A DNA stretch of 64,000 bases from Escherichia coli (GCA_902499925.1 GCA_902499925.1_4130.1); one strand, 5' to 3'. Counted from the stretch's first letter, positions 1-64,000 are shown. A program made the numbers and translations. The notes: generated from the sequence alone by a model not told the origin.

Positions 1-339
1 GATATCACCCGAACCCAGTAACTTGTCACGGAATTGTTTAAACTCGATTTCTTCATCGGATAATGAAAAACCCAAATCCATAAAGCACATACCACCAGCA
101 CTGAAGCATGACCCAGATGATGTACCAATTAAAATATCATCCATCCCATATAAGCCGTAAAAAATATTGGAGTACCAAGTACTAAGTTTACTTCGGTGAT
201 GATATTTAAGAACATTCTTCTTGATATTTACATCTAATGAATTAGCTGTTGATATCACTTTTTTGGTTAAAATAATAGTTTTGTTCAAATTACTCAACCA
301 TACTTTAGTATCAGTTGGGCTAAGAGCAGTGTATTTCAT
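1..339 (-). CDS. hypothetical protein (partial, 3' end beyond window start)
   Basis: ATG at 337-339 followed by 113 open codons to the window edge (MKYTALSPTDTKVW...); absent from ORF track because no stop lies inside the window. Confidence 0.45.
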   Translation of the reverse strand, partial: MKYTALSPTDTKVWLSNLNKTIILTKKVISTANSLDVNIKKNVLKYHHRSKLSTWYSNIFYGLYGMDDILIGTSSGSCFSAGGMCFMDLGFSLSDEEIEFKQFRDKLLGSGDI

Positions 340-340
340 A

Positions 341-865
341 TTAATCCTCTAAATTCCATTCATCAACCATAGTTGAGCATAATTCCATGTGTCGGAAATA
401 TTTCTCATTAAGTGAATATGGACTCTTATAAAATTGTCGTACATCAGTGAATATATCATAGTTTCTATATATAAATGACATATTTTTATTCATGAATTCT
501 ATAATCTTCCATAACTTTTCTGTATCGTTTTGTATAGTTTCTGCACTCAATCCCGTCAATTTCATTAGACGCTTGATTTTAAAGCCAGACTCTATTGACG
601 TATTATTATGCTTGGTTAAGTAACTATAGCCAATGGAACTATATATTAGTTCAATACTATCAGTACTGGTTATTGTTCCTAGAAATGATTTTAAATTTCT
701 ATTCAACCAATACCATTTTTTGTTCTTGTTATAGCAAGAATACCACTTTTTAACTATAGCTATTGCCTCTGAATTTAAACTTTCGGCAAATTCATCAATT
801 AAAAACATGTGATTGAAAAATACATCACTTTGATCTTCAGATAATTTATATTGCTGCATATCCAC
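341..865 (-). CDS. hypothetical protein
   Basis: 174-aa ORF, co-oriented and tightly spaced with neighbours; no domain recognised. Confidence 0.6.
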   Translation of the reverse strand: MDMQQYKLSEDQSDVFFNHMFLIDEFAESLNSEAIAIVKKWYSCYNKNKKWYWLNRNLKSFLGTITSTDSIELIYSSIGYSYLTKHNNTSIESGFKIKRLMKLTGLSAETIQNDTEKLWKIIEFMNKNMSFIYRNYDIFTDVRQFYKSPYSLNEKYFRHMELCSTMVDEWNLED

Positions 866-943
866 CTACCCTATTAACAATTACACCTTGGGTATTTACC
901 TTGTATGGATCAATTTTTGATCAATATTTTTTGATATGCAGCA

Positions 944-971
944 AATAAAATGGGAATCATGAAAGATTCCC
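944..971 (-). terminator. rho-independent terminator
   Basis: GGGAAUC-UUUCAU-GAUUCCC then AUUUUAUUU on the minus strand, just after the stop of 979..1425. Confidence 0.65.
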
Positions 972-978
972 TAAGTAA

Positions 979-1425
979 TTATTTCTGGAATGGAGTGTAC
1001 TGGTACTGCTCACAATCGGAAACAGTTAGTACACCTTCATCATAACCGTACTGGAGAATAAGATCAAATGCTTTATCAACCATAGCTACAACGTCTTTGT
1101 AACGAACAATAGTATGTGCCTGTTTCTCAACTGCTTTCATAATACCCATCAACATCCAGCGACCTTCATCAGTGTGAAGTTTAGCAAAACGAGGACGTTT
1201 AGTTGCTGCCATAATGTCAGTCCATTCTGCTTTAAACACTGATGGACGTTTAGGAATATCATACAGAGTTGTTGGGAATGTTACGTTGTTTTTCTTCATA
1301 GCTTCAGCTTGTGCAGCACGATAACCTTGACGGAATAGTGGGTGCTGTGATTTTAGCTGTTCATTGTTAAAAACTACTTTGTTTTTAAACGCGGCAGAAC
1401 CTTCTTTGTATTGTGCATTAGACAT
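979..1425 (-). CDS. hypothetical protein
   Basis: 148-aa ORF followed by hairpin terminator at 944-971. Confidence 0.65.
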   Translation of the reverse strand: MSNAQYKEGSAAFKNKVVFNNEQLKSQHPLFRQGYRAAQAEAMKKNNVTFPTTLYDIPKRPSVFKAEWTDIMAATKRPRFAKLHTDEGRWMLMGIMKAVEKQAHTIVRYKDVVAMVDKAFDLILQYGYDEGVLTVSDCEQYQYTPFQK

Positions 1426-1426
1426 A

Positions 1427-1717
1427 TTATTCTTTCCCCTCGTCAGTACTGATGAATTTTTTATCTGAGAATGTGCCGTGTTCTTGACGCATAGCTTCTG
1501 CGTGTTGAACTGCGTTAATTGGATTAATGTTCTTTTTAATAAGAACTTCTTGCATTAATTCGAGAACAATAGAAAAACCATTGAGTACTCGCTCTGCCTC
1601 GTCAACACCTTTCAATTCAATAGCCACTGCACTAATCTGATCTAATGCGGTATTAATAAACTCTGAATCATCTAACACATCATTGACTTCAGTATTATTA
1701 CGTACAAGAACTTTCAT
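1427..1717 (-). CDS. hypothetical protein
   Basis: Track ORF 1427..1756; start moved to ATG 1717, which has GGAG 5 nt upstream; 96 aa. Confidence 0.55.
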   Translation of the reverse strand: MKVLVRNNTEVNDVLDDSEFINTALDQISAVAIELKGVDEAERVLNGFSIVLELMQEVLIKKNINPINAVQHAEAMRQEHGTFSDKKFISTDEGKE

Positions 1718-1768
1718 ATAATCTCCAGAAATAAGATGCCCCAAATGAGGCATCAAATGAAATTCAAA

Positions 1769-2464
1769 TTAGACCCACTCTTCAACGCCACCGCGACGTT
1801 TGACGAGATACTTACCTTCTTCGTTGCGTGGTCCGAGGATGATACCATCAATGAAACCATGTTCACCGTATTCGAGTGCTTCTTCAGCGTTCAACCACAG
1901 GTCACGATCCGCATCTTTCAGTAGTTGTTCGTGTGATACACCAACTGCTTCAGCAATTTCTTTCGTCAATAGTGTGTTCAATGCATCAGAGTGTTTCAAA
2001 GAAATCTTCTGATCGGTAATCAGACCCTGAGTACCGGAACTTACTTGGTGGCACATGAAGTAAGAACGCTTACCACCTAGACGGAAACCTTTAGTACCAA
2101 CAACTGATTGAGTATAGCAACCCATTGATGCTGCATAACCCATTACTACTGTACGGATAGGAGATACACAAGACTTAGCAATGTCAGCGATACCCAAACC
2201 TGCGTGTACTGAACCACCAGGAGAACTAATGTAGAAGGTAATTGGTTCCGAACCCTGAGAATCCAACCACACCAATTGTTGCTTGATGATATGTGCCATT
2301 TGGTCATTGAAGTCAGTATCAAGGAAAATGATACGGTCTTGCATCATACGAGATGCTAGGTCATAAGTACGTTCTGCACCATTAACTTTTTCAACTACAT
2401 AAGGAATAGAAATGTTGCGAACTTCACCACCAGCATAACCACCAAAATTGAATTGTTCAACCAT
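1769..2464 (-). CDS. clpP: ClpP-like ATP-dependent protease proteolytic subunit
   Basis: 231 aa aligning by eye along the length of E. coli ClpP: SSPGGSV, catalytic Ser in GYAASMG, His in MCHQ, Asp in DADRD. Confidence 0.9.
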   Translation of the reverse strand: MVEQFNFGGYAGGEVRNISIPYVVEKVNGAERTYDLASRMMQDRIIFLDTDFNDQMAHIIKQQLVWLDSQGSEPITFYISSPGGSVHAGLGIADIAKSCVSPIRTVVMGYAASMGCYTQSVVGTKGFRLGGKRSYFMCHQVSSGTQGLITDQKISLKHSDALNTLLTKEIAEAVGVSHEQLLKDADRDLWLNAEEALEYGEHGFIDGIILGPRNEEGKYLVKRRGGVEEWV

Positions 2465-2498
2465 TGTTATTTTCCTCTATTGTTTCATTGATGTGAGT

Positions 2499-2526
2499 AT
2501 TATATCACAGTGTTCGTATTTGTCTA
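2499..2526 (-). promoter_or_regulatory. sigma70-like promoter with extended -10 (TAGACA-16-TGaTATAAT)
   Basis: Read on the minus strand upstream of clpP; -10 at 2499-2504, -35 at 2521-2526. Confidence 0.5.
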
Positions 2527-10133: not shown

Positions 10134-10181
10134 TCCATGTCAGTGTCGTAATGAAATTATATCACCGAATCAAGATATGTC

Positions 10182-50502: not shown

Positions 50503-50519
50503 ACAAAAAAGCCCATATC

Positions 50520-52732: not shown

Positions 52733-52733
52733 A

Positions 52734-53063: not shown

Positions 53064-53074
53064 ATTGGTATTCC

Positions 53075-53379: not shown

Positions 53380-53396
53380 ATTATAATCTTCACTCC

Positions 53397-54003: not shown

Positions 54004-54031
54004 TTATATTGCATCTCCTTTAGGTATATTC

Positions 54032-54343
54032 TTATATGTCAATTTCAATGATCCTCCCTGACATACCTTGTATTAGCTTATCATACATATCGAGCATCAC
54101 TTTTTGAATACTAATTAATACTGGCATCGTGCAAATATCAATGTCGTATATTAAGCTGTACTGGAATAATTCCTCTTCCTGCATTTGTACTAAATTAGGT
54201 AAAAGATAATTGTCTGCCTCTTCATCCTGGTACTTGAAATGCATAACGCCATCCTTTTTGTACAAAAGAATGTCAATATCACCTAACTCTTCTGCATAAC
54301 CAAAAATACATATACTCGATGTTTTTGCTATATTAAATTTCAT
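54032..54343 (-). CDS. FQ-motif paralog (short form)
   Basis: 103 aa; QEEELFQYSLIY...SIQKVM. Confidence 0.75.
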   Translation of the reverse strand: MKFNIAKTSSICIFGYAEELGDIDILLYKKDGVMHFKYQDEEADNYLLPNLVQMQEEELFQYSLIYDIDICTMPVLISIQKVMLDMYDKLIQGMSGRIIEIDI

Positions 54344-54352
54344 ATTCTTCTC

Positions 54353-54676
54353 TTATATGTGGAATTCACATACGTGTTGAACAAAATTCTTTGGAAGATG
54401 ACAATGTGTAATCATCTGCTTTTGTACTTCCTTCATATCTTCGAATGTAAATCCTAAAGAATCATCATGTACTAACAAGTACTGAAACTCTTCTTCTTCA
54501 GAGATAGAACATAAATTCGGTACTGAAATTGTTTTTGTTTTTCTTGCACCTAATTTCCAATGAAAAGAATTATTGCATTTTCTGTACTCAAATATCTTCA
54601 ACCCAGAACCTGTATTAAAATCAGCTACTACAATGTAACATGAATTCTTACGTACAATACAATTGAACTTACGCAT
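54353..54676 (-). CDS. FQ-motif paralog (short form)
   Basis: Track 54353..54703; ATG 54676 has GGTGGAG upstream and a TAATG junction; SEEEEFQYLLVH. Confidence 0.7.
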   Translation of the reverse strand: MRKFNCIVRKNSCYIVVADFNTGSGLKIFEYRKCNNSFHWKLGARKTKTISVPNLCSISEEEEFQYLLVHDDSLGFTFEDMKEVQKQMITHCHLPKNFVQHVCEFHI

Positions 54677-54921
54677 TATCTCCACCTCTCTCCGTCTGTA
54701 CAAGAGTACTGGTACGTTGTCGTTAGGGTAGGAACCATGTTTGTAATGGGCATATTGTTAACAATAACCGTAACAGGCATAAGAATCGTCTCTTCTCTAC
54801 TCTGTCCTGTCCTTGTGCAATTCATCTTCTGCATTTCATCTGAATCCATGAAATACAATACAAATGGTGCAATCCCAAGAACAATACACAAGACGATAAG
54901 GAAATTTAAAAAATTTAACAT
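54676..54921 (-). CDS. small membrane protein (N-terminal TM helix)
   Basis: 81 aa; MLNFLNFLIVLCIVLGIAPFVLYF; GAGGG RBS; directly downstream of promoter 54961-54989. Confidence 0.6.
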   Translation of the reverse strand: MLNFLNFLIVLCIVLGIAPFVLYFMDSDEMQKMNCTRTGQSREETILMPVTVIVNNMPITNMVPTLTTTYQYSCTDGERWR

Positions 54922-54960
54922 AATTTTTACCCTCTATTTGAACGCTCAAAAAGTACAGGT

Positions 54961-54989
54961 ACTATAGCACTAAAGAAAAGTACTGTCAA
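54961..54989 (-). promoter_or_regulatory. sigma70-like promoter (TTGACA-17-TATAGT)
   Basis: The minus strand reads TTGACAGTACTTTTCTTTAGTGCTATAGT; upstream of membrane protein gene 54676..54921. Confidence 0.65.
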
Positions 54990-54990
54990 G

Positions 54991-55356
54991 CTAGTATTGC
55001 ACTGTTCTAATGAAAGTACCTGAACTCATGGATTTAAGCTTATGAACCTCTTCCTGTATACCCTTGAGCAACTCTAAAGGCATTGGTACATCATGTACTA
55101 AGCTGTACTGAAAGTATTCTTCTTCAGATAAAGTACTAACATCTGGGACGCCAATTTTAGTTAGATAATCTTGATGTGTTGACCAATAAATTATATCTTC
55201 AGTACAATTGTACTCCCCATATACTGAACAATATTGATGAATATCTTTCCTGTACCCTTGAGCAATAAAGAACTTATCTACGGCATTAATAGAACTCACT
55301 TCGATTGTTACAGTACTTGAGCTTGTTTTTCCTTTATTATGCATATTAATCCCCAA
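54991..55356 (-). CDS. FQ-motif paralog (short form)
   Basis: 121 aa; SEEEYFQYSLVH. Confidence 0.75.
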   Translation of the reverse strand: MGINMHNKGKTSSSTVTIEVSSINAVDKFFIAQGYRKDIHQYCSVYGEYNCTEDIIYWSTHQDYLTKIGVPDVSTLSEEEYFQYSLVHDVPMPLELLKGIQEEVHKLKSMSSGTFIRTVQY

Positions 55357-55532
55357 ATTAGATATCGAACACTATCAGCTTGATAGTTAGTTCCTACTGT
55401 GTGTTTTAATATTAACTCATCTTTCAGTACTGAACATTCTGCATTAGATATAGGAAGTGAATTAATTCTTTGAATTTCTGGTCGCAACATACCGCGAATC
55501 TTGCGATAATCTTCGTATGATAATCTTTTCAT
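55308..55532 (-). CDS. GTNYQ-family small paralog
   Basis: 74 aa; HTVGTNYQADSV. Confidence 0.65.
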   Translation of the reverse strand: MKRLSYEDYRKIRGMLRPEIQRINSLPISNAECSVLKDELILKHTVGTNYQADSVRYLIWGLICIIKEKQAQVL

Positions 55533-55535
55533 GGT

Positions 55536-55880
55536 TTAATACTCAATAATGTGTTCTTCATAATCACCATTAGGCTCCTGTTTAGCTTCTTTCATTAGTA
55601 CTATCATCTTATGTACTAATGGCATAGGAAACTCTAAATCCCATACTAATGATTCCTGAAAGTATTCCTCTGGTGATAAAGTACTTAAATCTTTAATATC
55701 AACGTGCTTGTATATTTTATTTTCGTAATTAACAAATGATATATATAAATCATTAATATAAGAATCATACGTAATTGTGAATGGCTTACCCTTGTAGTCC
55801 ATTACATCTCTACATAGACTACTTTTGATATATATATGTTCATAGGATTTATATACCTTGAGTTGTATATTAGTTTTCAT
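55536..55880 (-). CDS. FQ-motif paralog (short form)
   Basis: 114 aa; SPEEYFQESLVW. Confidence 0.75.
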   Translation of the reverse strand: MKTNIQLKVYKSYEHIYIKSSLCRDVMDYKGKPFTITYDSYINDLYISFVNYENKIYKHVDIKDLSTLSPEEYFQESLVWDLEFPMPLVHKMIVLMKEAKQEPNGDYEEHIIEY

Positions 55881-56112
55881 ATTTCTCTTTATTAGCTTGT
55901 TTGGTTTTATAGTGAATTAAATCTATTAATGTAATCAAGTACAACTTCAAAAAGTACTCTTGATGGTTCGTACCTAATGATACAAAGAACTTATGCTCAT
56001 AAATCAAAACCTGTTTCACTTCAAAGGGACACTTAATCCTCTGTATAGGTTTAAGTAAATGATAGTACTTATTAAATCTATGATACATTTCTAGTTCTGT
56101 CAGTACTTTCAT
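55870..56112 (-). CDS. GTNYQ-family small paralog
   Basis: Track start 56121 is TTG; ATG 56112 follows the upstream stop; VSLGTNHQEYFL. Confidence 0.65.
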   Translation of the reverse strand: MKVLTELEMYHRFNKYYHLLKPIQRIKCPFEVKQVLIYEHKFFVSLGTNHQEYFLKLYLITLIDLIHYKTKQANKEKYEN

Positions 56113-56113
56113 A

Positions 56114-56335
56114 TTAAACAATCACTCCATTAGCTGTAGCATCACGTAAAGCTCTCAAATACTTCTGTACTGCTTGCTCTTGCTTATTTGTACCTAAAAG
56201 TATATACATCCATAATTCACTGTAATGTACATCTTGTGTATAAGGGTTGTTGTAACTTTTTGATAATATAGCATCAAATTCAGATGCATGAACCCTTGTG
56301 AACTTAAGAATATCTTGTTGTGTTATGATTCTCAT
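56114..56335 (-). CDS. GTNYQ-family small paralog
   Basis: 73 aa; ILLGTNKQEQAV. Confidence 0.7.
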   Translation of the reverse strand: MRIITQQDILKFTRVHASEFDAILSKSYNNPYTQDVHYSELWMYILLGTNKQEQAVQKYLRALRDATANGVIV

Positions 56336-56547
56336 ATCTTTTCCTGTACTATCTGTATAAGAATCCCTATGTGTGAATTAACAGTTCTCTCTTGATGCTG
56401 TGTTCCTAAGAGTGTCAGTACTATCATCTCTGAACGCAAAAGATTTTTCTGAAGTTCACTTATATCAGTCCTCATATCAAGATTCAGAAATTCTTGACTA
56501 TTTTTTCTGAATAGTGCCAAGTACTCTTGATTTGATATTTCCTTCAT
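56332..56547 (-). CDS. GTNYQ-family small paralog
   Basis: 71 aa; TLLGTQHQERTV. Confidence 0.7.
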   Translation of the reverse strand: MKEISNQEYLALFRKNSQEFLNLDMRTDISELQKNLLRSEMIVLTLLGTQHQERTVNSHIGILIQIVQEKI

Positions 56548-56774
56548 AGTTTATCCCTGATGCCATTTAAAAGTGCTCTAATATGCTCCTGTACGAATTT
56601 GTACTGACTGTCTGTTCCTAGAGTGAGTAGCAATCTTAAATCTGAACTTTTGATGTGATATTCTAAATCATTATTTGATTCTTGCATCAGTTTCTTAAAG
56701 GATGAGAAGTTTGCAGCCATTAGTTCAATGTATTCTGCTGTTCCTAGTGGTTTGTGTATTGGCTGTTTGTGCAT
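56544..56774 (-). CDS. GTNYQ-family small paralog
   Basis: 76 aa; LTLGTDSQYKFV. Confidence 0.7.
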   Translation of the reverse strand: MHKQPIHKPLGTAEYIELMAANFSSFKKLMQESNNDLEYHIKSSDLRLLLTLGTDSQYKFVQEHIRALLNGIRDKL

Positions 56775-56986
56775 TTTAATTTTATTACCCTTTTGAGTGT
56801 ATTAATGTAATTATACACATTGGCTTCTTGATAGTTAGTTCCCAGTGTAGCTTGAACATAGATTTCATTTAACTTAATAATTTTATCAGTATCTGGTAGT
56901 TTTGATGTGTTAATGGCAAATAACTTCAAAAACAGTCCATTTAAGATTGTTAGGTATTCTTCGTCGGTAATGATTCGCATTTGCAT
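56744..56986 (-). CDS. GTNYQ-family small paralog
   Basis: 80 aa; ATLGTNYQEANV. Confidence 0.7.
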   Translation of the reverse strand: MQMRIITDEEYLTILNGLFLKLFAINTSKLPDTDKIIKLNEIYVQATLGTNYQEANVYNYINTLKRVIKLKCTNSQYTNH

Positions 56987-57192
56987 TGGATAAACCTTTT
57001 TAGTTCTTTGATGTAATCATTAATATTGCATTCTTGATAGTTAGTCCCTAGGGTAGCTTGAACATAGATTTCACTCATTAGAATATTTTTTTCTTCATCA
57101 GGTAAATCTGTGGTCTTTGCTATATACAATTTTAGAATTAAACTACTTAATAGTTCGTGGTATTCACTTGGTGAAAGGATTTTCATTTGCAT
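56950..57192 (-). CDS. GTNYQ-family small paralog
   Basis: 80 aa; ATLGTNYQECNI; close paralog of 56744..56986. Confidence 0.7.
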   Translation of the reverse strand: MQMKILSPSEYHELLSSLILKLYIAKTTDLPDEEKNILMSEIYVQATLGTNYQECNINDYIKELKRFIQCKCESLPTKNT

Positions 57193-57398
57193 GTTCTCAG
57201 TACAGATTCTTTAAGTTCATCGATGTAGTCCTCAACGAATTGCTCTTGGAAGTTAGTTCCAATATATAAAAGAACTCTTAAATCTGCTCTAAGTAACTCT
57301 TTTTCATCATCATCTATATCAGACAATGTTATGTTTAAGAATTTACTTGTATTAAAGATTAACAATTCTGTTTGTTCACTGTGGCTTAAAATTTTCAT
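57183..57398 (-). CDS. GTNYQ-family small paralog
   Basis: 71 aa; LYIGTNFQEQFV. Confidence 0.7.
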   Translation of the reverse strand: MKILSHSEQTELLIFNTSKFLNITLSDIDDDEKELLRADLRVLLYIGTNFQEQFVEDYIDELKESVLRTCK

Positions 57399-57606
57399 AA
57401 TCTCTTTTTGCTTTCCTCGACAGTAGGTACAAATACGATTCTTCGTATTGTGCTTGGAAGTTTGTGTTTAAGAGTCGAAACAACTTCTGTTCTTCTAGAA
57501 CGAGTTGCTTATCTTCATAACAACGGTAGCGTATCAACTTTTTGTATTCGATGTTGATTACATCCATTACTATAAGCCCATGTTCATCATCTGTCAAGTG
57601 CTTCAT
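57376..57606 (-). CDS. GTNYQ-family small paralog
   Basis: 76 aa; RLLNTNFQAQYE. Confidence 0.65.
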   Translation of the reverse strand: MKHLTDDEHGLIVMDVINIEYKKLIRYRCYEDKQLVLEEQKLFRLLNTNFQAQYEESYLYLLSRKAKRDYENFKPQ

Positions 57607-57845
57607 GCTTTTTTTCTTTTCCTGATGTGTTTAGTTAAAAGGTATATTAGTTTTCTGATGTATTCTTCCTGATAGTTTGTTCCTAATAGTGCAAGAAGTT
57701 TTGCTTCAACTAAAGCTAATTGACGTTCTTCAAATGTGTGTTCCAGTATGTACTTTGGGTTTGATTTTTTAGAAATTGCACTATTAGTTTTCATTACAAT
57801 CTTATGATATTCATTAACTGTTAGGATTTTTAAATTCTTGAGCAT
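57603..57845 (-). CDS. GTNYQ-family small paralog
   Basis: 80 aa; ALLGTNYQEEYI. Confidence 0.7.
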   Translation of the reverse strand: MLKNLKILTVNEYHKIVMKTNSAISKKSNPKYILEHTFEERQLALVEAKLLALLGTNYQEEYIRKLIYLLTKHIRKRKKA

Positions 57846-58071
57846 GTACCTTTTCCTTTATAGAGAATTTAAGATATCGAAGCATACTTTCAATGTAATA
57901 CTCTTGTCTGTCAGTTCCAAGAAAGTACAGGAGTTGAATGTATAAAACTTCTGCACTCCTTTCGGCATGTGACTTGTTTGTGTCGTTTGGAAGTTGATTT
58001 GTAAGTTTTCTGGATTTAATTAATCGTTCTTTTAACTCATCGTCTGTTAAGTATTTCATTTGCATTTGCAT
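57814..58071 (-). CDS. GTNYQ-family small paralog
   Basis: 85 aa; YFLGTDRQEYYI. Confidence 0.7.
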   Translation of the reverse strand: MQMQMKYLTDDELKERLIKSRKLTNQLPNDTNKSHAERSAEVLYIQLLYFLGTDRQEYYIESMLRYLKFSIKEKVHAQEFKNPNS

Positions 58072-58297
58072 TTACTTTTTCCTTAATAGTGATTTTAAGA
58101 TATCTAATCATACGTGCAACATATTCCTCTTGTCTATCAGTTCCCAGAAGATATGGTAGTGATTGGAATAATACTTCTGCACTCCTTTCTGCTGGGGTTT
58201 GGTTTAGGTCAATTGGACGTTTATTGGTATATCTCTTGGCACGAACTAATCTCTCGACGTATTCATTATAGGTTAAGTATATCATTTCATTTTGCAT
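58037..58297 (-). CDS. GTNYQ-family small paralog
   Basis: 86 aa; YLLGTDRQEEYV. Confidence 0.7.
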   Translation of the reverse strand: MQNEMIYLTYNEYVERLVRAKRYTNKRPIDLNQTPAERSAEVLFQSLPYLLGTDRQEEYVARMIRYLKITIKEKVNANANEILNRR

Positions 58298-58533
58298 TTA
58301 ATGTTTCTTACGTAAATTGTCTGGATTAAACAATCAATCCAAGTTTGAATATATTGGTTTTGATACTGTGTGCCTAAGAGACTCTGCATTTTAAACTCTG
58401 CTTCAAGTTCATATCTCTTTTCTATAGAAAAGCTCAAATGACCATATTCTTTATCGTATCTTCTCAGTGCTTCCCCAATTCTATCAAATCTTTCTGCTAA
58501 TCTGATGTTATTCACAATATTCATCGCATTCAT
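58282..58533 (-). CDS. GTNYQ-family small paralog
   Basis: 83 aa; SLLGTQYQNQYI. Confidence 0.7.
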   Translation of the reverse strand: MNAMNIVNNIRLAERFDRIGEALRRYDKEYGHLSFSIEKRYELEAEFKMQSLLGTQYQNQYIQTWIDCLIQTIYVRNIKCKMK

Positions 58534-58787
58534 CGATCAGTACACCTCAGTGGTTGGGTCATTTGATGAAAGTACAGCTTACCTCTGATTTCCAGTAGTA
58601 ACTCCGCGATTAAGCGATTTACTTCTGTATCTTGATAGTTTGTTCCTAAGAATACACCCATCTTTAACTCACGCATCATAATCATTTTCTTACTGTGTTG
58701 AATTTCTGGGTTGTGATAGATTGTATTACGTTTGTGCGTAATTTTTGTCATACGCTCGGTATATTCATCTTTACTTAAATTAATCAT
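58530..58787 (-). CDS. GTNYQ-family small paralog
   Basis: Track 58530..58808; ATG 58787 (MINLSKDEY) matches sibling N-termini; VFLGTNYQDTEV. Confidence 0.7.
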   Translation of the reverse strand: MINLSKDEYTERMTKITHKRNTIYHNPEIQHSKKMIMMRELKMGVFLGTNYQDTEVNRLIAELLLEIRGKLYFHQMTQPLRCTDR

Positions 58788-59019
58788 TTTTATTCTCCAA
58801 AGCATCACATTTATTTTCGATACAAATCATTAGTTCTCTAAGATAGTTTTTTATCTTACCTTCCTGATGGTTCGTCCCCAGGAAGTTGCATAACTCTGCT
58901 TCTATTATTTTGATTCTTCTGGTGTCAGGTTTCAATTTTTTGTTATTGAAGATTTGAATCCTTATATCCCTTGATGCATTTAAACGTTTTTGATATTCAT
59001 GGAAAGATAAATTAATCAT
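58780..59019 (-). CDS. GTNYQ-family small paralog
   Basis: 79 aa; MINLSFHEY; NFLGTNHQEGKI. Confidence 0.7.
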   Translation of the reverse strand: MINLSFHEYQKRLNASRDIRIQIFNNKKLKPDTRRIKIIEAELCNFLGTNHQEGKIKNYLRELMICIENKCDALENKND

Positions 59020-59234
59020 TTACTTTGTATCTCTCTCTTGAGGGCATCAATTAACAACAGTACAGCATTCTCTTGATAGTTTGTTCCTAAGACTGAAAGC
59101 ATCTTAATCTCATTTACTACAATCAACTTCTTTGAGCGTTCAATAATGTTACTATTATAAACGGCGTTACGTGCTGGATAAGTTTTTGCAAGACGAACAT
59201 AATATTCATCTTTACTTAAATTAATCATTTGCAT
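59016..59234 (-). CDS. GTNYQ-family small paralog
   Basis: 72 aa (alternative ATG 59228 gives MINLSKDEY); SVLGTNYQENAV. Confidence 0.7.
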   Translation of the reverse strand: MQMINLSKDEYYVRLAKTYPARNAVYNSNIIERSKKLIVVNEIKMLSVLGTNYQENAVLLLIDALKREIQSK

Positions 59235-59443
59235 TTACTTTGGATCTCCTTGACTAATGCATCAACCCACATGTCTATATACATTTGTTGATAGTTTGTC
59301 CCTATGAGTGCCCCTGCATAGAGTTCAGCTACCATTGCATGTTTTAGGTTGGCAGGGATGCTCTTATCAGATTGAATCTTTACTCTTCTGTTGGCACATG
59401 TTTTCAGAAGCTTAACATATTCGTAACCTATTAATTTTCTCAT
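59225..59443 (-). CDS. GTNYQ-family small paralog
   Basis: 72 aa; ALIGTNYQQMYI. Confidence 0.7.
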   Translation of the reverse strand: MRKLIGYEYVKLLKTCANRRVKIQSDKSIPANLKHAMVAELYAGALIGTNYQQMYIDMWVDALVKEIQSKCK

Positions 59444-59655
59444 TCTTTTGATATCACCTTGTTACGTAAGGCACTTAACAATACGTCAGTGTAGATGTTT
59501 TGATAGTTTGTTCCTACGAATACACCCAACTTCATTTCAGCTATTATAACACATTTGTCCTCTTGTGCAATAGACTTGTCTAAAGAAATACTAACAACTT
59601 TCCTTCTTATAGCTTGTAACCTCCAATGATACTGATACTCATTTAGGGTTATCAT
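59440..59655 (-). CDS. GTNYQ-family small paralog
   Basis: 71 aa; VFVGTNYQNIYT. Confidence 0.7.
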   Translation of the reverse strand: MITLNEYQYHWRLQAIRRKVVSISLDKSIAQEDKCVIIAEMKLGVFVGTNYQNIYTDVLLSALRNKVISKE

Positions 59656-59890
59656 TCTCTCGCCTCCATTTCTCGGTTCTAATGTGTTGACATTGTGCTT
59701 CGATGAACATATCTATTGATTTGGCAATTGCTTTTTTATCTGTGCCTGTCATCAGTACAAGCATCTCGGCCTCACAGTGAAGTAAACGCATGATATCATA
59801 GGGTAATATTCCAGATACCGTGTCATAGTGTTTCTGTGCCAGTGTCTGTAATAGTTTACAATACATTTTGTGATTTAGTCTGTGTCGCAT
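59639..59890 (-). CDS. GTNYQ-family small paralog (divergent core)
   Basis: 83 aa; LMTGTDKKAIAK at the core position. Confidence 0.55.
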   Translation of the reverse strand: MRHRLNHKMYCKLLQTLAQKHYDTVSGILPYDIMRLLHCEAEMLVLMTGTDKKAIAKSIDMFIEAQCQHIRTEKWRRENDNPK

Positions 59891-60147
59891 TGTTTATTCC
59901 ATTCTTTTTTGGCCTTGATGGTTTTATATTGGATTTGGTTTCTTAATGCTGATAAGTATCGTTGAATGAACAGATCTTGATAGTTTGTTCCAATGAATTT
60001 CATCAGATAAAGTTCACCGTTGATAACATCCACTTCAGGTGCACCATATAAGGCATTGTTTTTTCTAAGGGTATGGATTAAAGAGAATAGGGCAGTTTGA
60101 TACTCAACTCCTGATAAAGTCTTCATGTTTTGTGAGCCAATAATCAT
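59875..60147 (-). CDS. GTNYQ-family small paralog
   Basis: 90 aa (alternative ATG 60126 gives MKTLSGVEY); KFIGTNYQDLFI. Confidence 0.7.
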   Translation of the reverse strand: MIIGSQNMKTLSGVEYQTALFSLIHTLRKNNALYGAPEVDVINGELYLMKFIGTNYQDLFIQRYLSALRNQIQYKTIKAKKEWNKQCDTD

Positions 60148-60361
60148 CTAGTTTATCCTGTATAACATTCATTAATTGTTCGACATATTCTGTGCAAAAC
60201 TTATCTTGATATTGAGTCCCCATAAAGTACAACAACCATAGCTCATTAACTTTAGCTCGCATTTGGTTCCATGTAAGGCTGGGGTCATCGTAGACTATCC
60301 TTGCTATAGGGGTTAGTTTACGGACTATAGTTTCATATTCATCTAGTGTTAAGTGTTTCAT
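60104..60361 (-). CDS. GTNYQ-family small paralog
   Basis: 85 aa; YFMGTQYQDKFC. Confidence 0.7.
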   Translation of the reverse strand: MKHLTLDEYETIVRKLTPIARIVYDDPSLTWNQMRAKVNELWLLYFMGTQYQDKFCTEYVEQLMNVIQDKLDDYWLTKHEDFIRS

Positions 60362-60576
60362 TTACATTTGTCCCTTATTAGATCAGTGAGGGCAACTATG
60401 TGTGCAACAACATACTCTTCCTGAAAGTTCGTCCCCAGTACAGCCATCATGCGTATATCGGTGGTGTTTATCCTGTGTTCCCTTACACATAAACCTTCTG
60501 TGTGAGGAAGTGTAAAATATTTGTTTATTGCAGCAACGATAATTTTATTCTTCTCGGAGTTACTTAAATGTTTCAT
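60358..60576 (-). CDS. GTNYQ-family small paralog
   Basis: 72 aa; AVLGTNFQEEYV. Confidence 0.7.
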   Translation of the reverse strand: MKHLSNSEKNKIIVAAINKYFTLPHTEGLCVREHRINTTDIRMMAVLGTNFQEEYVVAHIVALTDLIRDKCK

Positions 60577-60785
60577 AGTTTGCTCTTAATGTATTTCTGG
60601 AGTGCAATTATATACTCATTCAAGAAATGCTCCTGATAGTCTGTGCCGAGGAATGCACCCAATAGTATATCATTTTCCAATACTAATGCTAAGTTTAAAT
60701 CATCAGTCTCTTCATATACTATGAGAATTTCAAGTTGTCTGGCAGCGACGCGTTCGGTATATAGATTTGAGTTAATGCTATTCAT
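60573..60785 (-). CDS. GTNYQ-family small paralog
   Basis: 70 aa; AFLGTDYQEHFL. Confidence 0.7.
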   Translation of the reverse strand: MNSINSNLYTERVAARQLEILIVYEETDDLNLALVLENDILLGAFLGTDYQEHFLNEYIIALQKYIKSKL

Positions 60786-60994
60786 AGTTTACTCTTAATG
60801 TAATTCTGGAGTGCAATTAAGTATTCCCCTACATAATACACCTGAAAGTCTGTATCCAAAAATGCACCCATAAGTAAATCTTTTTCTAATACCCTTGATA
60901 AGTTAAGGTCTGCATTTGAAAGGTATATAAGTAAGATTTCACCCTGTGCGGAATTGAAACGTTTCTTATATTCTTCTGGTGTTAAAAAAATCAT
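60782..60994 (-). CDS. GTNYQ-family small paralog
   Basis: 70 aa; AFLDTDFQVYYV; close paralog of 60573..60785. Confidence 0.7.
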   Translation of the reverse strand: MIFLTPEEYKKRFNSAQGEILLIYLSNADLNLSRVLEKDLLMGAFLDTDFQVYYVGEYLIALQNYIKSKL

Positions 60995-61200
60995 AGTTTC
61001 CTCTTAATATCTTCTATTAAAAATCGAATCCAATCGTCAACATACTCTTCCTGATGGTTTGTGTTCAGTACAGCCAACATGCGGATCTCTGCTCTTGCAA
61101 CTTCAATTGCAGTTTTAGGAAGGTCTTTTCTGATATCCAACATTAAGTCCATGTATCTCAAGATAAGACCGTATGATTGGGTTCGTGTTATAGTTTTCAT
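60991..61200 (-). CDS. GTNYQ-family small paralog
   Basis: 69 aa; AVLNTNHQEEYV. Confidence 0.7.
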   Translation of the reverse strand: MKTITRTQSYGLILRYMDLMLDIRKDLPKTAIEVARAEIRMLAVLNTNHQEEYVDDWIRFLIEDIKRKL

Positions 61201-61397
61201 TGTTTCCTCGTGGATAATATTTCATTTTTCAATGCATCCATATATTGAATCACCCATCTTCCCTGATAGCTTGTTCCCAATGTAATCAAAAGGTATAACT
61301 CAATTCGTTCTAAGTTTGTGTCTGTGTTATAAATCTTTACCATGTTTTTACGTAACAGTTCTTGATAATCTTCTTTATTTAAAATACGCATTTTCAT
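61197..61397 (-). CDS. GTNYQ-family small paralog
   Basis: 66 aa; ITLGTSYQGRWV. Confidence 0.65.
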   Translation of the reverse strand: MKMRILNKEDYQELLRKNMVKIYNTDTNLERIELYLLITLGTSYQGRWVIQYMDALKNEILSTRKQ

Positions 61398-61591
61398 AGT
61401 CTACCTTTTATGTCCCTTCGTAATTCTTGTAAGTATAGTTCGATATACTTTTCTTGATAGTTAGTTCCTATGAAAAGTTTCATAACCAATTCACGCTTAT
61501 ATGCAATACCACGGATATGTGACATATGTAGGATATATGCCATGTTGGATATGAGTGTGTGGTTGTGCTCTTCTTGAGTTAAAATACGCAT
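61394..61591 (-). CDS. GTNYQ-family small paralog (first gene of the array)
   Basis: Track 61394..61621; ATG 61591 (MRILTQEEH) has GGAG upstream and lies downstream of promoter 61622-61649; LFIGTNYQEKYI. Confidence 0.7.
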   Translation of the reverse strand: MRILTQEEHNHTLISNMAYILHMSHIRGIAYKRELVMKLFIGTNYQEKYIELYLQELRRDIKGRL

Positions 61592-61621
61592 AGGGACTCC
61601 ATTAAAAATAATATCAATCAT

Positions 61622-61649
61622 ATAATATACAATTCATATAAAAAGTCAA
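61622..61649 (-). promoter_or_regulatory. sigma70-like promoter (TTGACT-16-TATTAT) heading the GTNYQ array
   Basis: -35 at 61644-61649, -10 at 61622-61627; other -10 registers are possible in this AT-rich stretch. Confidence 0.45.
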
Positions 61650-61840
61650 TAACATTTTATTAGTAATACCCCTTTATCGAAGTCGCTAAGGTTACCCGCC
61701 CTTTAGCCCCCTACGCATTTTGCCATAGTCCAATCCCTTTTTATTCATAAAAGTCAAGGGATTACCTATGCATTTTTTTAACGCTGAAATTTAAAAATGC
61801 CTTGACTTTTTTATGATTCAGTACTAAATCCTTTTACGCA

Positions 61841-62995: not shown

Positions 62996-63024
62996 ATTAT
63001 CGCAGTACTGATATACTTTGTCAA
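62996..63024 (-). promoter_or_regulatory. sigma70-like promoter (TTGACA-17-GATAAT)
   Basis: Upstream of 62610..62942. Confidence 0.6.
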
Positions 63025-63140: not shown

Positions 63141-63170
63141 TAGCAAAGGGACTGACCGGAGTCAATCCCT
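63141..63170 (-). terminator. hairpin terminator
   Basis: AGGGAUUGAC-UCCG-GUCAGUCCCU then UUUGCUAUU; the internal pair is G-U on the minus transcript but a C-A mismatch on the plus transcript, favouring minus-strand function. Confidence 0.5.
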
Positions 63171-63187
63171 TTTTTTATTCTTTTTTG

Positions 63188-63388
63188 TTAGATGATTCTC
63201 CAATCATCAACGATCATGGTAAGATACCGAACCAGTGATCCGAGTGATTCGTGTTCTCGATAGTCTGCCGCTCCACCAGCGGTACAAGTACAGCCGATTA
63301 AGCCGTTTTGTAGTTCCTGGATCTTTACGTCGATCTGGTTGGCTTTAGCTTCTTTCAGTACTTCAACCAGGGCGATAGCGATAGACAT
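63188..63388 (-). CDS. hypothetical small protein (GC-richer module)
   Basis: 66-aa ORF, own promoter 63444-63471, hairpin terminator downstream. Confidence 0.6.
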   Translation of the reverse strand: MSIAIALVEVLKEAKANQIDVKIQELQNGLIGCTCTAGGAADYREHESLGSLVRYLTMIVDDWRII

Positions 63389-63410
63389 AATGTTTTACTC
63401 CAAACTATTG

Positions 63411-63431
63411 GCGGGAGAACTATTCCCCCGC
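63411..63431 (-). promoter_or_regulatory. conserved 5' UTR stem-loop, copy 2
   Basis: Minus-strand RNA GCGGGGG-AAUAGUU-CUCCCGC; the A-U pair of copy 1 is replaced by C-G (compensatory change). Confidence 0.55.
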
Positions 63432-63443
63432 TCTATGTAAAAC

Positions 63444-63471
63444 ATTATACATTACTGGTTAGTACTGTCAA
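63444..63471 (-). promoter_or_regulatory. consensus sigma70 promoter (TTGACA-16-TATAAT)
   Basis: Followed by the conserved GTTTTACATAGAG + stem-loop leader; upstream of 63188..63388. Confidence 0.7.
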
Positions 63472-63478
63472 ATAGTTT

Positions 63479-63736
63479 TTATGAAATATCTTCGATGTAG
63501 TCGGCCCATTTCATTTTTTCAGTACTGTCAATGGCGACCGGATTATTTGGATCAAACCATTCACCATCACCGCAATACATACCCACGGCTACGGTTTTAT
63601 AGCCATCCTGGGCCGCACTCCACGACATTGCACGATAGATATGGCCTTTAACTGGTTGCAGTACTGGTAACGTTTTATGGTCTTCTACGTAGGCCATAGC
63701 TTGAGGATTTACCCGATATTGTGTGAACTGATCCAT
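63479..63736 (-). CDS. hypothetical small protein (GC-richer module)
   Basis: 85-aa ORF, GGGGA RBS, promoter 63764-63792. Confidence 0.6.
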   Translation of the reverse strand: MDQFTQYRVNPQAMAYVEDHKTLPVLQPVKGHIYRAMSWSAAQDGYKTVAVGMYCGDGEWFDPNNPVAIDSTEKMKWADYIEDIS

Positions 63737-63763
63737 TATGTTTCCCCTTGTAGTTAGTAAAGT

Positions 63764-63792
63764 TATTACATCAGTACTATCAAGCTATGTCA
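63764..63792 (-). promoter_or_regulatory. sigma70-like promoter (TTGACA-17-TGTAAT)
   Basis: Upstream of 63479..63736. Confidence 0.5.
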
Positions 63793-63887
63793 ATAGTACT
63801 GAAATAAAACTTTTAGATTAGATTATTGAGGCCGTCAATGGTAGACTCACTTTCTTCTTTCTCCCATTGTCGGTAGTACTTCCATGC

Positions 63888-64000
63888 TTCATGATAGGTG
63901 GCGATTAGTTCATCTTTTTGATCCTGGTTACATGCCAGTACTGAATCACGGTGAGCGGTGTTATAGATAGAATCGAATGATTTCTTCTCTTCTGCCAGGT
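63888..64000 (-). CDS. hypothetical protein (partial, 5' end beyond window end; C-terminus possibly frame-disrupted)
   Basis: Open frame from the window edge (..LAEEKKSFDSIYNTAHRDSVLACNQDQKDELIAHLS*) stops at 63888-63890; another frame stays open to TAA 63812-63814. Confidence 0.3.

Follow-up and report, generated by a model that had tools for sequence, protein, structure and literature searches.

The palindrome AGTACT is enriched in a lineage of jumbo phages and may be composed of a strand-specific word

Introduction

One close described counterpart of the AGTACT palindrome studied here is HIP1 (GCGATCGC) of cyanobacteria. Like AGTACT, HIP1 is a short palindrome found every few hundred bases genome-wide, within genes and in every frame; it is lineage-specific, is kept through codon choice and has no agreed function. 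HIP1 differs in being an octamer of cellular genomes that contains GATC and CGATCG, and host enzymes that methylate these two sequences have been identified (PMC6105098, PMC6604393). AGTACT, in contrast, is a hexamer of a lytic phage lineage, with no evident cognate methyltransferase and with strict one-strand islands.

Several other systems share single traits with AGTACT. Chi (GCTGGTGG), KOPS (GGGNAGGG) and DNA uptake sequences occur in numerous copies that are each under weak selection, can replace one another and influence codon usage, and they are read by a tracking enzyme in an orientation-dependent manner; the phage islands show such polarity around a point. These signals are asymmetric and strand-skewed genome-wide, whereas the phage superposes both orientations as a palindrome over about 95% of its genome. 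Primases initiate at short sites, 5'-(G/T)(G/T)GTC-3' for T7 and 5'-GTT-3' for T4. Like the word proposed below, such sites are short and strand-specific and are needed on the lagging-strand template of both strands, and 5'-AGTAC-3' contains GT and 3' bases that could be 'cryptic', as in the T4 GTT. To our knowledge, primase sites span 3-5 nt and have not been reported as strongly enriched. ScaI (AGTACT) and RsaI, Csp6I, CviQI and PabI (GTAC) recognize the identical sequence with the strict palindromic specificity typical of Type II enzymes, but phages normally avoid restriction targets, as do the T4-like phage and the Kuttervirus sampled here, whereas this target is 8-fold enriched. The nucleoid-occlusion protein SlmA of E. 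coli binds GTGAGTACTCAC, which shares the AGTACT core, and the hosts of the enriched phages are Enterobacterales; the phage, however, avoids the flanks that SlmA requires, and no such enrichment is seen in unrelated phages infecting the same hosts.

AGTACT is over-represented in every frame

The window, by which we mean the whole stretch of 64,000 bases analysed (positions 1-64,000), holds 198 AGTACT sites, or 3.1 per kb regardless of strand, and the core GTAC occurs 585 times against 195 expected. The extended consensus is (tt)C-AGTAC-T-G(aa). A sequence-only reading of the window had proposed a roughly ten-fold excess, and this was borne out: Markov models of order 0, 1, 2 and 3 predict 21.4, 17.5, 40 and 84 sites, respectively, and the excess is 9.2-fold over order 0, 7.6-fold over codon-order shuffles and 3.5-fold over synonymous shuffles. 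The local counts given earlier also hold, with 18 sites in 41,000-44,100 (17 by eye) and 9 in 14,000-16,550 (about 10 by eye). The symmetric base composition behind that estimate (about 32% each of A and T, 18% each of G and C) was inaccurate, as the window, whose genes lie nearly all on the - strand, is 31% A, 35% T, 19% C and 15% G.

Within the 143 ORFs, 170 sites were observed, compared with 22.5 +/- 4.3 after codon-order shuffling (z = 34) and 48 +/- 6 after synonymous-codon shuffling (z = 20), in which the protein sequence and the per-gene codon usage are held fixed. The sites occupy all three codon phases (71, 42 and 57) and intergenic DNA (27 in 6 kb), as had been claimed, and 86% of them are inside ORFs. 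Comparison with high-order Markov models, a check put forward with the original claim, gave a divided result: the count well exceeds orders 0-3, and at order 4 it falls within 2-fold of the 178.5 sites predicted. The order-4 model absorbs the signal rather than refuting it, because the pentamers from which it is computed, AGTAC and GTACT, are themselves each about 5-fold enriched. Nor can a few repeated segments account for the count, since the 198 sites lie in 192 distinct 30-nt contexts. AGTACT thus resembles the HIP1-type iterated palindromes in its over-representation against composition, Markov and codon-preserving nulls, and in occurring in all frames and in non-coding DNA without being borne on repeats.

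The enrichment follows the phage lineage

Sequence comparison identifies the window as part of a jumbo coliphage of the genus Asteriusvirus, with 98.6% identity to phage Turkey3. Extending the count to the rest of the genome and to relatives, as had been advised, gave the same picture. The whole Turkey3 genome contains 981 AGTACT sites against 122 expected, located in genes of both orientations and in spacers, and its + strand carries 1544 AGTAC and 1431 GTACT, 4-fold above expectation. RaK2-like giant phages of gut bacteria hold about 1000 sites per genome, eight to ten times chance, and the enrichment is common to every enterobacterial RaK2-like genus sampled (four genera) and to 13 metagenomic or uncultured relatives. 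Related jumbo phages that infect Pseudomonas, Xanthomonas and Agrobacterium (PA5oct, XacN1 and Atu_ph07) lack the enrichment or show the reverse, and AGTACT is depleted in a T4-like phage (0.35-fold) and a Kuttervirus (0.2-fold), which are unrelated to the enriched phages but share their hosts. The enrichment tracks the phage lineage, not the host, and AGTACT is probably read by some phage machinery. No published description of the enrichment was found in the literature.

In the genome body, the gaps between sites average 406 bp, with a CV of 0.93 and a maximum of 2.6 kb. The proposed test of positional periodicity showed no helical phasing there and an almost Poisson spacing, which is the behaviour of many interchangeable sites. 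Palindromes are otherwise purged from the genome, 24 of the 64 palindromic hexamers being absent altogether. The phage separately carries the host Chi sequence, about 15-fold enriched.

Two one-strand islands flank a conserved centre

AGTACT had been described as spread across the whole stretch, which is incorrect, as none occurs at 46,721-54,478. The gap corresponds to island A (46,715-54,478, - strand), 7.8 kb without AGTAC on the + strand, that is, with no GTACT on the coding strand. On the + strand of the island, GTACT stays at 6-7 per kb, with 37 copies of TGTACT, and the coding-strand sites read ttCAGTAC-A-G. Depending on the genome, 41-52 half-sites lie on the coding strand and 0 on the other (P <= about 2.5e-7 per genome). 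This one-strandedness is kept in the window, Turkey3, PBECO4 (about 81% identical) and A4 (75% identity over only 37% of the region). In all island A sites the departure from the palindrome falls at one position and always on one side, position 6 having become A, which is not what random knock-out of a symmetric site would give. The non-palindromic GTACT is also missing, though about 10 copies are expected at the body rate. Island A is a hypervariable cassette with paralogs of one family on both sides, and its ORFs have no match in Pfam, NCBIfam or PDB. The third-position GC skew is +0.2 at the island against about -0.05 elsewhere and stops where the island stops, as expected of a foreign or highly transcribed cassette.

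Island B (57,750-61,821, - strand) comprises 4.1 kb without GTACT on the + strand, its polarity being opposite to that of island A. The island, which is kept in PBECO4, Turkey3 and A4, consists of about 16 paralogous genes in tandem, each encoding roughly 70 aa. Its GTAC cores are few, mostly AGTACA on the + strand. Island B is weaker evidence than island A. Between the two lies a centre (54,479-57,749, no strand assigned) with dense full palindromes, the best-conserved stretch of the region, with an identity to PBECO4 of 0.95-0.96 at about 54.0-56.4 kb. A strong promoter, TTGACAGTACT...TGcTATAGT (54989-54961, - strand), is directed into island A. The centre shows no DnaA-box excess, no iterons and nothing else origin-like.

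Both islands are transcribed in the same direction with opposite word polarity, and their word units are directed away from the conserved centre. Both were seen in all four Asteriusviruses examined, and no other gap of this kind occurs in 361 kb, the next in size measuring 2.0 and 1.7 kb. Within them the strand specificity is strict. No consistent strand bias of the word was found across the rest of the genome, and the first 68 kb of CBB contain no polar islands, which are confined to Asteriusvirus; any Chi- or KOPS-like flip of polarity would lie between the two islands, which flank 54.5-57.7 kb.

A strand-specific word as the possible functional unit

The two adjacent one-strand islands of opposite polarity, present in four of four Asteriusviruses, suggest a strand-specific functional unit, 5'-(C)AGTAC-3', two overlapping copies of which would make up the palindrome. 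The explanation that we tentatively prefer is that a phage enzyme of replication or recombination reads AGTACT as an orientation-dependent signal. Selection would maintain 5'-(C)AGTAC-3' in the lineage at a density of about one copy per 240 nt of each strand. The AGTAC and GTACT counts of the Turkey3 + strand point to a word that is required densely and on both strands. As the word ends in the self-complementary GTAC, top- and bottom-strand copies could share one core, which would cost 6-8 constrained bases instead of 10-12, and most copies would then take the form of the palindrome (C)AGTACT(G). The word may act as a 'self' signal, read on one strand by a phage enzyme that tracks along DNA in replication or recombination-dependent replication. 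Candidate readers would be a T4-type primase-helicase, for which the word would be a long priming site, or a helicase or nuclease of the phage that responds to it as a Chi/KOPS-like signal. The Turkey3 annotation includes a primase, a DnaB-like helicase, a clamp, a clamp loader and recA/UvsX-, UvsY- and UvsW-type proteins, and the replisome is, judging from these annotations, of T4 type. Both orientations would be useful where forks or translocases come from either side, which with T4-like replication genes would be most of the genome. Beside one conserved point, which lies 6-9 kb into the terminal repeat, the outward orientation alone would be tolerated, giving rise to the two polar islands. 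A tracking enzyme as the reader, its identity and an origin-like point between the islands are what we infer from this arrangement.

Some features count against a strand-specific word. The primases known to us recognize 3-5 nt, not 5-6 nt, and the Chi and KOPS signals we know of are not palindromic. A misoriented primase or Chi site should be neutral, not forbidden, and its strict avoidance needs an extra assumption. The restriction of the polar islands to Asteriusvirus, the lack of origin features at the centre and the end of the GC3 skew together with island A also speak against it.

Selection on the sites and their flanks

In the comparison with PBECO4, 72.5% of AGTACT sites are intact versus 50.4% of all hexamers, and the identity of third codon positions is 0.872 in sites versus 0.775 outside. 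The counts are at equilibrium (102 vs 99), with a turnover of about 27% at 15% divergence. Purifying selection on individual sites is weak, and sites turn over. Ser-Thr pairs are encoded as AGT-ACT in 416 of 806 cases against 122 expected, and Ser-Thr is the most over-represented dipeptide (1.49-fold). The enrichment is at the DNA level, and the synonymous shuffles and the codon pairs agree with the earlier proposal that selection acts on the nucleic acid and not through a single peptide motif or a bias in codon use.

A biased mutation or repair process has been proposed for the cyanobacterial HIP1 palindrome, and very-short-patch-like mismatch repair, or context-specific base excision with A-rule bypass, could likewise yield AGTACT as a by-product, although we regard this as improbable. 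Such a process is consistent with the turnover and with a per-site constraint that is only modest. The island sites differ by one specific T-to-A transversion on one strand, a change that would follow from loss of the word's first adenine on one template strand and insertion of A at bypass, and the GC3 skew shows that mutation in island A is strand-asymmetric. However, no depletion of conversion substrates was found among the single-mismatch neighbours of AGTACT (the transition neighbours AGTATT and AATACT are at 1.06 and 1.05 times expectation). The better conservation of third codon positions within sites points to selection, and the protein is distorted at Ser-Thr, where a neutral by-product would be resisted.

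The flank preference is symmetric, with C before the site in 42-46% and G after it in about 38%, and the outer flanks vary by lineage, CAGTACTG being favoured in Asteriusvirus and RaK2 and AAGTACTT in CBB. These symmetric flanks, together with sites in promoter spacers upstream of transcription starts, argue for DNA rather than RNA. It is very doubtful that the word acts in RNA, with AGUACU as the site of an RNase or RNA-binding protein, or through a host protein such as SlmA. The mRNAs of island A do lack GUACU, which abounds in all other parts of the transcriptome, and all enriched phages infect Enterobacterales; but an RNA signal need not be palindromic, the two islands combine one transcription direction with opposite polarities, and the unrelated phages of the same hosts deplete AGTACT. 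SlmA sites, moreover, have the core between GTG and CAC, whereas G is the rarest base before the phage site (8%), and among the 981 Turkey3 sites GAGTACTC occurs 4 times, GT.AGTACT.AC 2 times and the full GTGAGTACTCAC 0 times.

Methyltransferases of the phage

A Dam-family N6-adenine methyltransferase is predicted at 22,000-22,524 on the - strand (PF05869; TIGR01712 below its cutoff), and a second phage methyltransferase, a DNMT3-like C5 enzyme, is encoded outside the window. Their presence raises the question of a dense modification or self-marking site at AGTACT or GTAC, whose marks would tell phage from host DNA or protect it, a reading to which we assign a low probability. An AGTACT-specific viral methyltransferase is implied for mollivirus (PMC7253447), and an abundant site would be safe if modified in a genome that avoids most other palindromes. 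The Dam-family enzyme was considered as the cognate of AGTACT and no link was found, in agreement with the sequence-only reading; its family is very widespread, occurring in 2,285 phage records, most of them outside the clade. RaK2 DNA has been reported to be CpG-methylated (PMC3622015), which does not fit AGTACT, as its cytosine is not in a CpG. A putative third 'methyltransferase', that of phage Sharanji (window 25,792-26,649), has no family or structure match and no visible SAM-binding motif, and nothing in Pfam, NCBIfam or PDB matched the ORFs that surround the Dam gene. No cognate enzyme was thus found among the two recognizable methyltransferases, which likely have other specificities, and the candidates near the Dam gene. 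Furthermore, protection accounts for tolerance of the site but not for its 8-fold enrichment, and a palindromic methyltransferase would not give one-strand islands.

Early promoters and a symmetric site

AGTACT holds fixed positions in early promoters, namely in the spacer beside the -10, over the -35, or just upstream of the -35. A predicted sigma-70-type promoter at 62,996-63,024 (- strand), TTGACA-N9-AGTACT-gc-GATAAT, carries the site in its spacer, adjoining an extended -10, the commonest layout in the early region of the Turkey3 terminal repeat. At 63,444-63,471 (- strand), in the early promoter TTGACAGTACT-N11-TATAAT, the site overlaps the -35 hexamer. The promoter coordinates quoted in the sequence-only reading were all correct, but its statement that AGTACT lies in most promoter spacers was too broad, the proportion being three of the six sigma-70-like promoters beyond 54 kb. 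Placement in the spacer is common in Asteriusvirus and in the terminal repeat of CBB, and 14 of 23 promoter-like sites in the CBB repeat carry AGTACT. The density of sites is also 2-3 times higher in the terminal repeat, which we take to be the DNA that enters first, in both genera examined.

These features are compatible with a symmetric double-stranded site for a phage-encoded dimeric protein or Type-II-like enzyme, which we consider possible but unlikely. The protein could be a global early sigma-70 repressor, a DNA-coating or compaction protein, perhaps packaged and co-injected so as to shield the incoming DNA, or an endonuclease or nickase that seeds recombination-dependent replication. 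A strict 6-bp palindrome with lineage-variable outer flanks is typical of Type II, and the tolerance of about 1000 ScaI-type sites in a palindrome-purged genome suggests that they are occupied or protected. The repeat density and the fixed promoter positions fit an operator as well as the strand-specific word, or better. A random 6-mer ends in a self-complementary tetramer 1 time in 16, which makes the palindrome a coincidence under the strand-specific word and a natural outcome for a symmetric reader.

A dimer reading the whole palindrome, as proposed earlier, nevertheless leaves the two one-strand islands unexplained, and the earlier interpretation is overall partly supported. Loss of binding would strike either half-site and any position, whereas island A keeps the coding-strand CAGTAC, alters only position 6 and lacks even the non-palindromic GTACT. 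The two flanks of GTAC show no positive association and are nearly independent, the 198 hexamers observed barely exceeding the number predicted from the pentamers. No candidate protein emerged from the ORFs of island A or those neighbouring the Dam gene, and about 2.5 sites per kb in late structural genes are hard to justify for an operator. A promoter element or operator confined to sigma-70 promoters was rejected given the share of window sites inside ORFs, and the main role of AGTACT is unlikely to lie in promoter spacers. In the published CBB promoter sequences, considered in part and mostly from outside the repeat, AGTACT is rare, and only one sequence comes close to it (TTGACAGTAC).

Genome context of the window

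Over its first 7.9 kb, the window is 98.6% identical to Escherichia phage Turkey3 (PQ471515.1), and its identity to PBECO4/121Q-type phages is about 85%; we therefore assign it to Asteriusvirus, RaK2-like jumbo myoviruses of about 350 kb. The Turkey3 genome (361 kb) was assembled from eight pieces, and its stretch from about 85.0 to 21.0 kb is the counterpart of window 1-64000. The minus strand carries 138 of the 143 window ORFs, and an early region of small genes with sigma-70 promoters starts at the window's right end. Direct terminal repeats of 20,993 bp have been described in the relative fEgEco12 (PMC13070987), and we infer that the right window end lies near the inner boundary of the left terminal repeat.

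AGTACT is over-represented at the DNA level

AGTACT occurs 198 times in the window, against 21, 17.5, 40 and 84 expected under Markov models of order 0, 1, 2 and 3, respectively, which bears out the over-representation proposed by the sequence-only reading; the local counts and promoter coordinates of that reading were also accurate on recount. Within ORFs, 170 sites were counted, compared with 22.5 ± 4.3 after codon-order shuffling and 48 ± 6 after synonymous-codon shuffling that keeps every protein. The excess thus stands against both shuffles but not against an order-4 model, whose expectation (178.5) is close to the observed count; that model is built from the enriched pentamers themselves and is therefore not an independent test. 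The two most over-represented hexamers, strand-merged, are CAGTAC/GTACTG (11.9-fold) and AGTACT (9.0-fold). Since the hexamer barely exceeds the product of AGTAC and GTACT given GTAC, the two flanks of the core are nearly independent of each other.

The ORF sites fall in all three codon phases (71, 42 and 57), and intergenic DNA carries sites too, as had been claimed; with 27 sites in 6 kb, it is richer than ORFs. Repeated gene segments are ruled out as the source by the 192 distinct contexts that hold the window sites and by the frequent sites in unique genes, such as the ligase gene. Across the whole Turkey3 genome, 416 of the 806 Ser-Thr pairs are encoded as AGT-ACT (122 expected from codon usage), Val-Leu is encoded as GTA-CTG 180 times (25 expected) and Gln-Tyr as CAG-TAC 107 times (29 expected); the pressure on AGTACT acts at the DNA level. 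These codon-pair counts agree with the shuffles in ruling out codon bias or a lone peptide motif as the cause, the conclusion already drawn by eye. Even the dipeptide content is altered, Ser-Thr being the most over-represented dipeptide (1.49-fold; Thr-Ser, 0.96).

The GTAC core was found 585 times against 195 expected, preceded by A in 50% and followed by T in 62% of cases. The next outer base of the Turkey3 sites is C or G in 46%, with a preceding G the rarest (8%), and the extended consensus reads (tt)C-AGTAC-T-G(aa). The outer flank of CBB prefers A/T, AAGTACTT being commoner than CAGTACTG, so that the conserved element is the hexamer. None of the one-mismatch neighbours of AGTACT is depleted, and Vsr-like conversion was rejected on that ground.

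The enrichment is a property of the phage lineage

AGTACT is the top or second hexamer in Pectobacterium phage CBB (Mimasvirus; 10.8-fold enriched), PBECO4 (9.8-fold), Klebsiella phage RaK2 (Alcyoneusvirus; 6.9-fold) and Yersinia phage fHe-Yen9-04 (Eneladusvirus; 5.9-fold). Its enrichment is 5.4- to 10.9-fold in 13 IMG/VR relatives. The latter were gathered by a ligase profile search of IMG/VR aimed at distant relatives, in which every one of the 13 loci lay inside the clade. Turkey3 carries 981 sites against 122 expected, and CAGTACTG occurs there 226 times against 3.8, so the enrichment extends to the rest of the genome; it is shared by the enterobacterial RaK2-like phages sampled. The distant jumbo relatives PA5oct (1 observed vs 8.5 expected), XacN1 (0 vs 6.4) and Atu_ph07 (2 vs 8.4) show neither the enrichment nor any comparable iterated palindrome. 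Two large phages that are unrelated but share these hosts, a T4-like phage (6 vs 17 expected) and a Kuttervirus (3 vs 14.6), show the opposite bias, which rules out a generic trait of phages on these hosts. The enrichment is a property of the phage lineage, not of the hosts. A full-text search of the literature on these phages returned no mention of it.

The evolution of individual sites was followed in an alignment of the window with PBECO4 that covers 34 kb at 85% identity. Intact AGTACT sites amount to 72.5%, compared with 50.4% for all hexamers, and third-codon-position identity is 0.872 within sites and 0.775 outside. About one quarter of the sites are unshared, with balanced totals (102 vs 99). 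As read from this alignment, the pattern is that of many interchangeable sites, each apparently under weak selection.

Sites are scattered through the genome body and dense in the early region

Spacing in the Turkey3 genome body is near-Poisson (mean gap 406 bp, CV 0.93, maximum gap 2.6 kb), and the check for periodicity excluded helical or otherwise regular spacing. The early region of the terminal repeat holds about 6.5-7 sites per kb, two to three times the density elsewhere, and its ORFs alone reach 5.4 sites per kb; the CBB terminal repeat has the same density excess. Many early promoters of this region take one of three forms, TTGACA-N9-AGTACT-N1-2-TATAAT, TTGACAGTACT or AGTACTaTTGACA.

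GCGC and many palindromes are avoided, and Chi is enriched

GCGC is absent from the window (24-50 expected) and from the 361 kb of Turkey3 (about 360 expected), as well as from every enterobacterial RaK2-like relative sampled, the 13 IMG/VR contigs included (samples: the window, the Turkey3 pieces L001-L008, and the records L009-L011, L013, L018 and L020-L033). It is near normal in PA5oct, XacN1 and Atu_ph07; in this sample, GCGC absence and AGTACT enrichment co-occur perfectly. Moreover, 24 of the 64 palindromic hexamers are missing from Turkey3, where 11-37 copies of each are expected, among them CTGCAG, CAGCTG, CCATGG, GGATCC, GGTACC, CGTACG, CTCGAG, GAGCTC, GCATGC, GCTAGC and GTCGAC; GAATTC and GATATC escape this avoidance. 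CpG is present in most GC-rich palindromes that survive, which fits protection by the phage CpG methylase. In a genome that shuns palindromes to this extent, one enriched 8-fold looks even more deliberate.

Turkey3 has 35 copies of the E. coli Chi sequence GCTGGTGG, where 2.4 would be expected (about 15-fold enrichment), more than of any other of the 168 permutations of these letters. Copies in one orientation cluster in the terminal repeats, nine to two in the 21-kb repeat of Turkey3 (1-21000) and seven to two in that of CBB (record L033, 1-22456); the window copies at 63050 and 63273 lie on the minus strand. Oriented Chi suggests protection of a genome end from RecBCD, a role that would thus be covered by a word other than AGTACT.

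Candidate enzymes and host factors

No methyltransferase considered here could be linked to AGTACT. The Dam-family enzyme (PF05869) encoded at window 22000-22524 (-) is a member of a family that is found in 2,285 phage records and lacks any relative in the PDB; nothing tied it to the site, in accordance with the sequence-only reading. DNMT3 catalytic domains align with the C5 methyltransferase from end to end, and it was rejected as cognate because it is DNMT3-like and RaK2 DNA was reported to be CpG-methylated on the basis of bisulfite sequencing (PMC3622015). For the 'methyltransferase' of phage Sharanji (window 25792-26649), family and structure searches gave no match, and no SAM motif was visible. 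SlmA recruitment was rejected, the required site flanks being wrong and avoided. Ten ordinary enzymes cut fEgEco12 DNA as predicted (PMC13070987), so bulk hypermodification is absent.

Two polar islands flank a conserved centre

Island A (window 46,715-54,478, minus strand) contains no AGTAC on the plus strand, while GTACT on that strand still reaches 6-7 per kb (37 copies of TGTACT). All sites of the coding strand have the form ttCAGTAC-A-G: A occupies position 6 in 90% of them and T in none, the following G is retained, and non-palindromic GTACT, of which about 10 copies would be expected at the body rate, is missing from this strand too. The same gap spans 8.85 kb in Turkey3, where the second-largest in 361 kb measures 1.98 kb, 7.7 kb in PBECO4 (about 81% identity) and 7.3 kb with 48 half-sites in A4, in which 37% of the region aligns at 75% identity. 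With a neutral partner base, the chance of finding no palindrome is at most about 2.5e-7 per genome. Island B (window 57,750-61,821) shows the polarity opposite to that of island A in four of four genomes and is smaller; it is the weaker evidence because it is a tandem array of about 70-aa paralogs with few GTAC cores.

The 3 kb between the islands (54,479-57,749; about 26.7-30 kb in Turkey3) carry dense full palindromes and are the best-conserved part of the region (identity 0.95-0.96), both islands being hypervariable, and a strong promoter at the edge of this centre is directed into island A. The centre shows no DnaA-box excess and no iterons. Polar islands were not found in CBB 1-68 kb or in the sampled parts of RaK2 and fHe-Yen9-04. 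The third-position GC skew is +0.2 in island A and about -0.05 elsewhere; ORFs of the island fall in PHROG families of unknown function and have no Pfam match. Island A looks like an inserted cassette because paralogs of one family bracket both sides. Long runs of small ORFs (100-210 aa) occupy window 26000-47000 and 54000-55900 and include at least two further paralog families (10 and 6 members by BLASTP), one of which brackets island A. In window 55870-61621, at least 16 paralogous genes, each encoding about 70 aa, follow one another in tandem roughly every 212 bp; they share CTTGATAGTTTGTTCCTAAG on the plus strand and have a strong AT skew (-0.2), and GTAC is not enriched in them.

A proposed reading: the palindrome as two strand-specific units

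If selection needed only to eliminate a symmetric site, changes would fall in either half and at any position; island A instead keeps one half, which is still enriched about 15-fold, and excludes the other. The 5'-AGTAC-3' copies of the two strands are therefore separately visible to selection, at least in Asteriusvirus. Together with the near-independent flanks, this suggests that the palindrome consists of two overlapping strand-specific units. Either replication or recombination, or else transcription, could supply such strand specificity. Islands A and B are co-directionally transcribed but opposite in polarity, a contrast that suggests a process which either leaves the centre or runs towards it. 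Seen from the centre, the units are directed outward, in the manner of Chi and KOPS relative to a bacterial origin; equivalently, they would lie on the lagging-strand template of forks leaving the centre. The phage replisome is of the T4 type, with a primase-helicase pair encoded at Turkey3 233025-235627, and a T4-type primosome would travel on that template.

The best-supported reading, a polar word for the replication or recombination machinery with a putative reader, is one we hold tentatively, since selection should ignore misoriented primase or Chi sites and not forbid them, origin signatures are lacking in the centre, the islands are genus-specific and the reader is still hypothetical. 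Its main rival is a symmetric double-stranded DNA-binding protein or Type-II-like enzyme, which would account at least as well for a palindrome of exactly 6 bp, for the placement in promoters and for the terminal-repeat excess but fails on island A, and which we consider rather unlikely. We regard as improbable a further proposal, self-recognition, in which the replisome or recombination machinery evolved a long (5-6 nt) strand-specific word, 5'-CAGTAC-3', and the genome was rewritten to match, in its codon pairs, dipeptides and possibly its tRNA set, so as to supply the word every few hundred bases on both strands. In one version, the reader would be a primase that primes efficiently only at this word. 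Phage machinery would then act on phage DNA and barely on host DNA, by sequence instead of base modification, and replication would start in a fixed direction from an origin marked by the two polar islands.

AGTACT is of the same kind as HIP1, Chi, KOPS and the DNA uptake sequences, iterated genomic words through each of which a DNA-handling machine was discovered. It differs from them in being phage-borne, in being a palindrome made from polar halves and in standing alongside extreme palindrome avoidance. The word is fixed across a clade of 350-kb phages without bulk base hypermodification, from which most other palindromes are purged, under a pressure that recodes half of the Ser-Thr pairs and lifts Ser-Thr over every other dipeptide. 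A reader, if found, could reveal how an unmodified giant phage separates its own from host DNA, how replication of a very large genome initiates or how early promoters are shut off. In practice, AGTACT is a simple diagnostic by which metagenomes can be screened for the clade, virion DNA is predicted to be either shredded by ScaI or RsaI or left uncut, and the word should be respected in recoding or synthesis of these therapeutic-candidate phages.

Further features of the word and its surroundings

The Turkey3 tRNA cluster (292.7-297.2 kb; piece L006, 42716-47180) comprises Ser(UGA), Ser(GCU), Ser(ACU), Met, Asn(GUU) and two Thr(UGU). To our knowledge, the anticodon ACU is unusual in a tRNA-Ser; it pairs base for base with AGU, the codon that opens AGT-ACT. 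TCA, AGT and ACT are codons of the extended motif in two frames; the first two are covered by this set, the third possibly through wobble. The major capsid protein gene (Turkey3 204910-206588) lies in a 1.7-kb stretch free of AGTAC, one of the longest in the genome body, which fits a translational cost of motif codons prevailing in the most highly expressed gene. Among the large tail genes (Turkey3 140000-160000, minus strand), half-sites on the plus strand number 44 for AGTAC not followed by T and 13 for GTACT not preceded by A; this skew may simply reflect frequent Gly-Thr (GGT-ACT) in these proteins, or else a replication-related polarity.

Another class of early promoters has its -35 hexamer within a hairpin with a 12-bp stem (AAAGGGATTGACTCCGGTCAGTCCCTTT) followed by TATTAT, without AGTACT, and occurs at window 63145-63172 (-) and at Turkey3 11686, 15344, 18623 and 20886. 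A sequence resembling it is given as both promoter and terminator in the CBB paper (PMC5259590), and its supplement predicts a terminator at 10171-10208 of the CBB record in which two copies of the word, AGTACTGG...CCAGTACT, precede a T run. Wherever two copies of the word lie close together, they can pair in RNA or single-stranded DNA.
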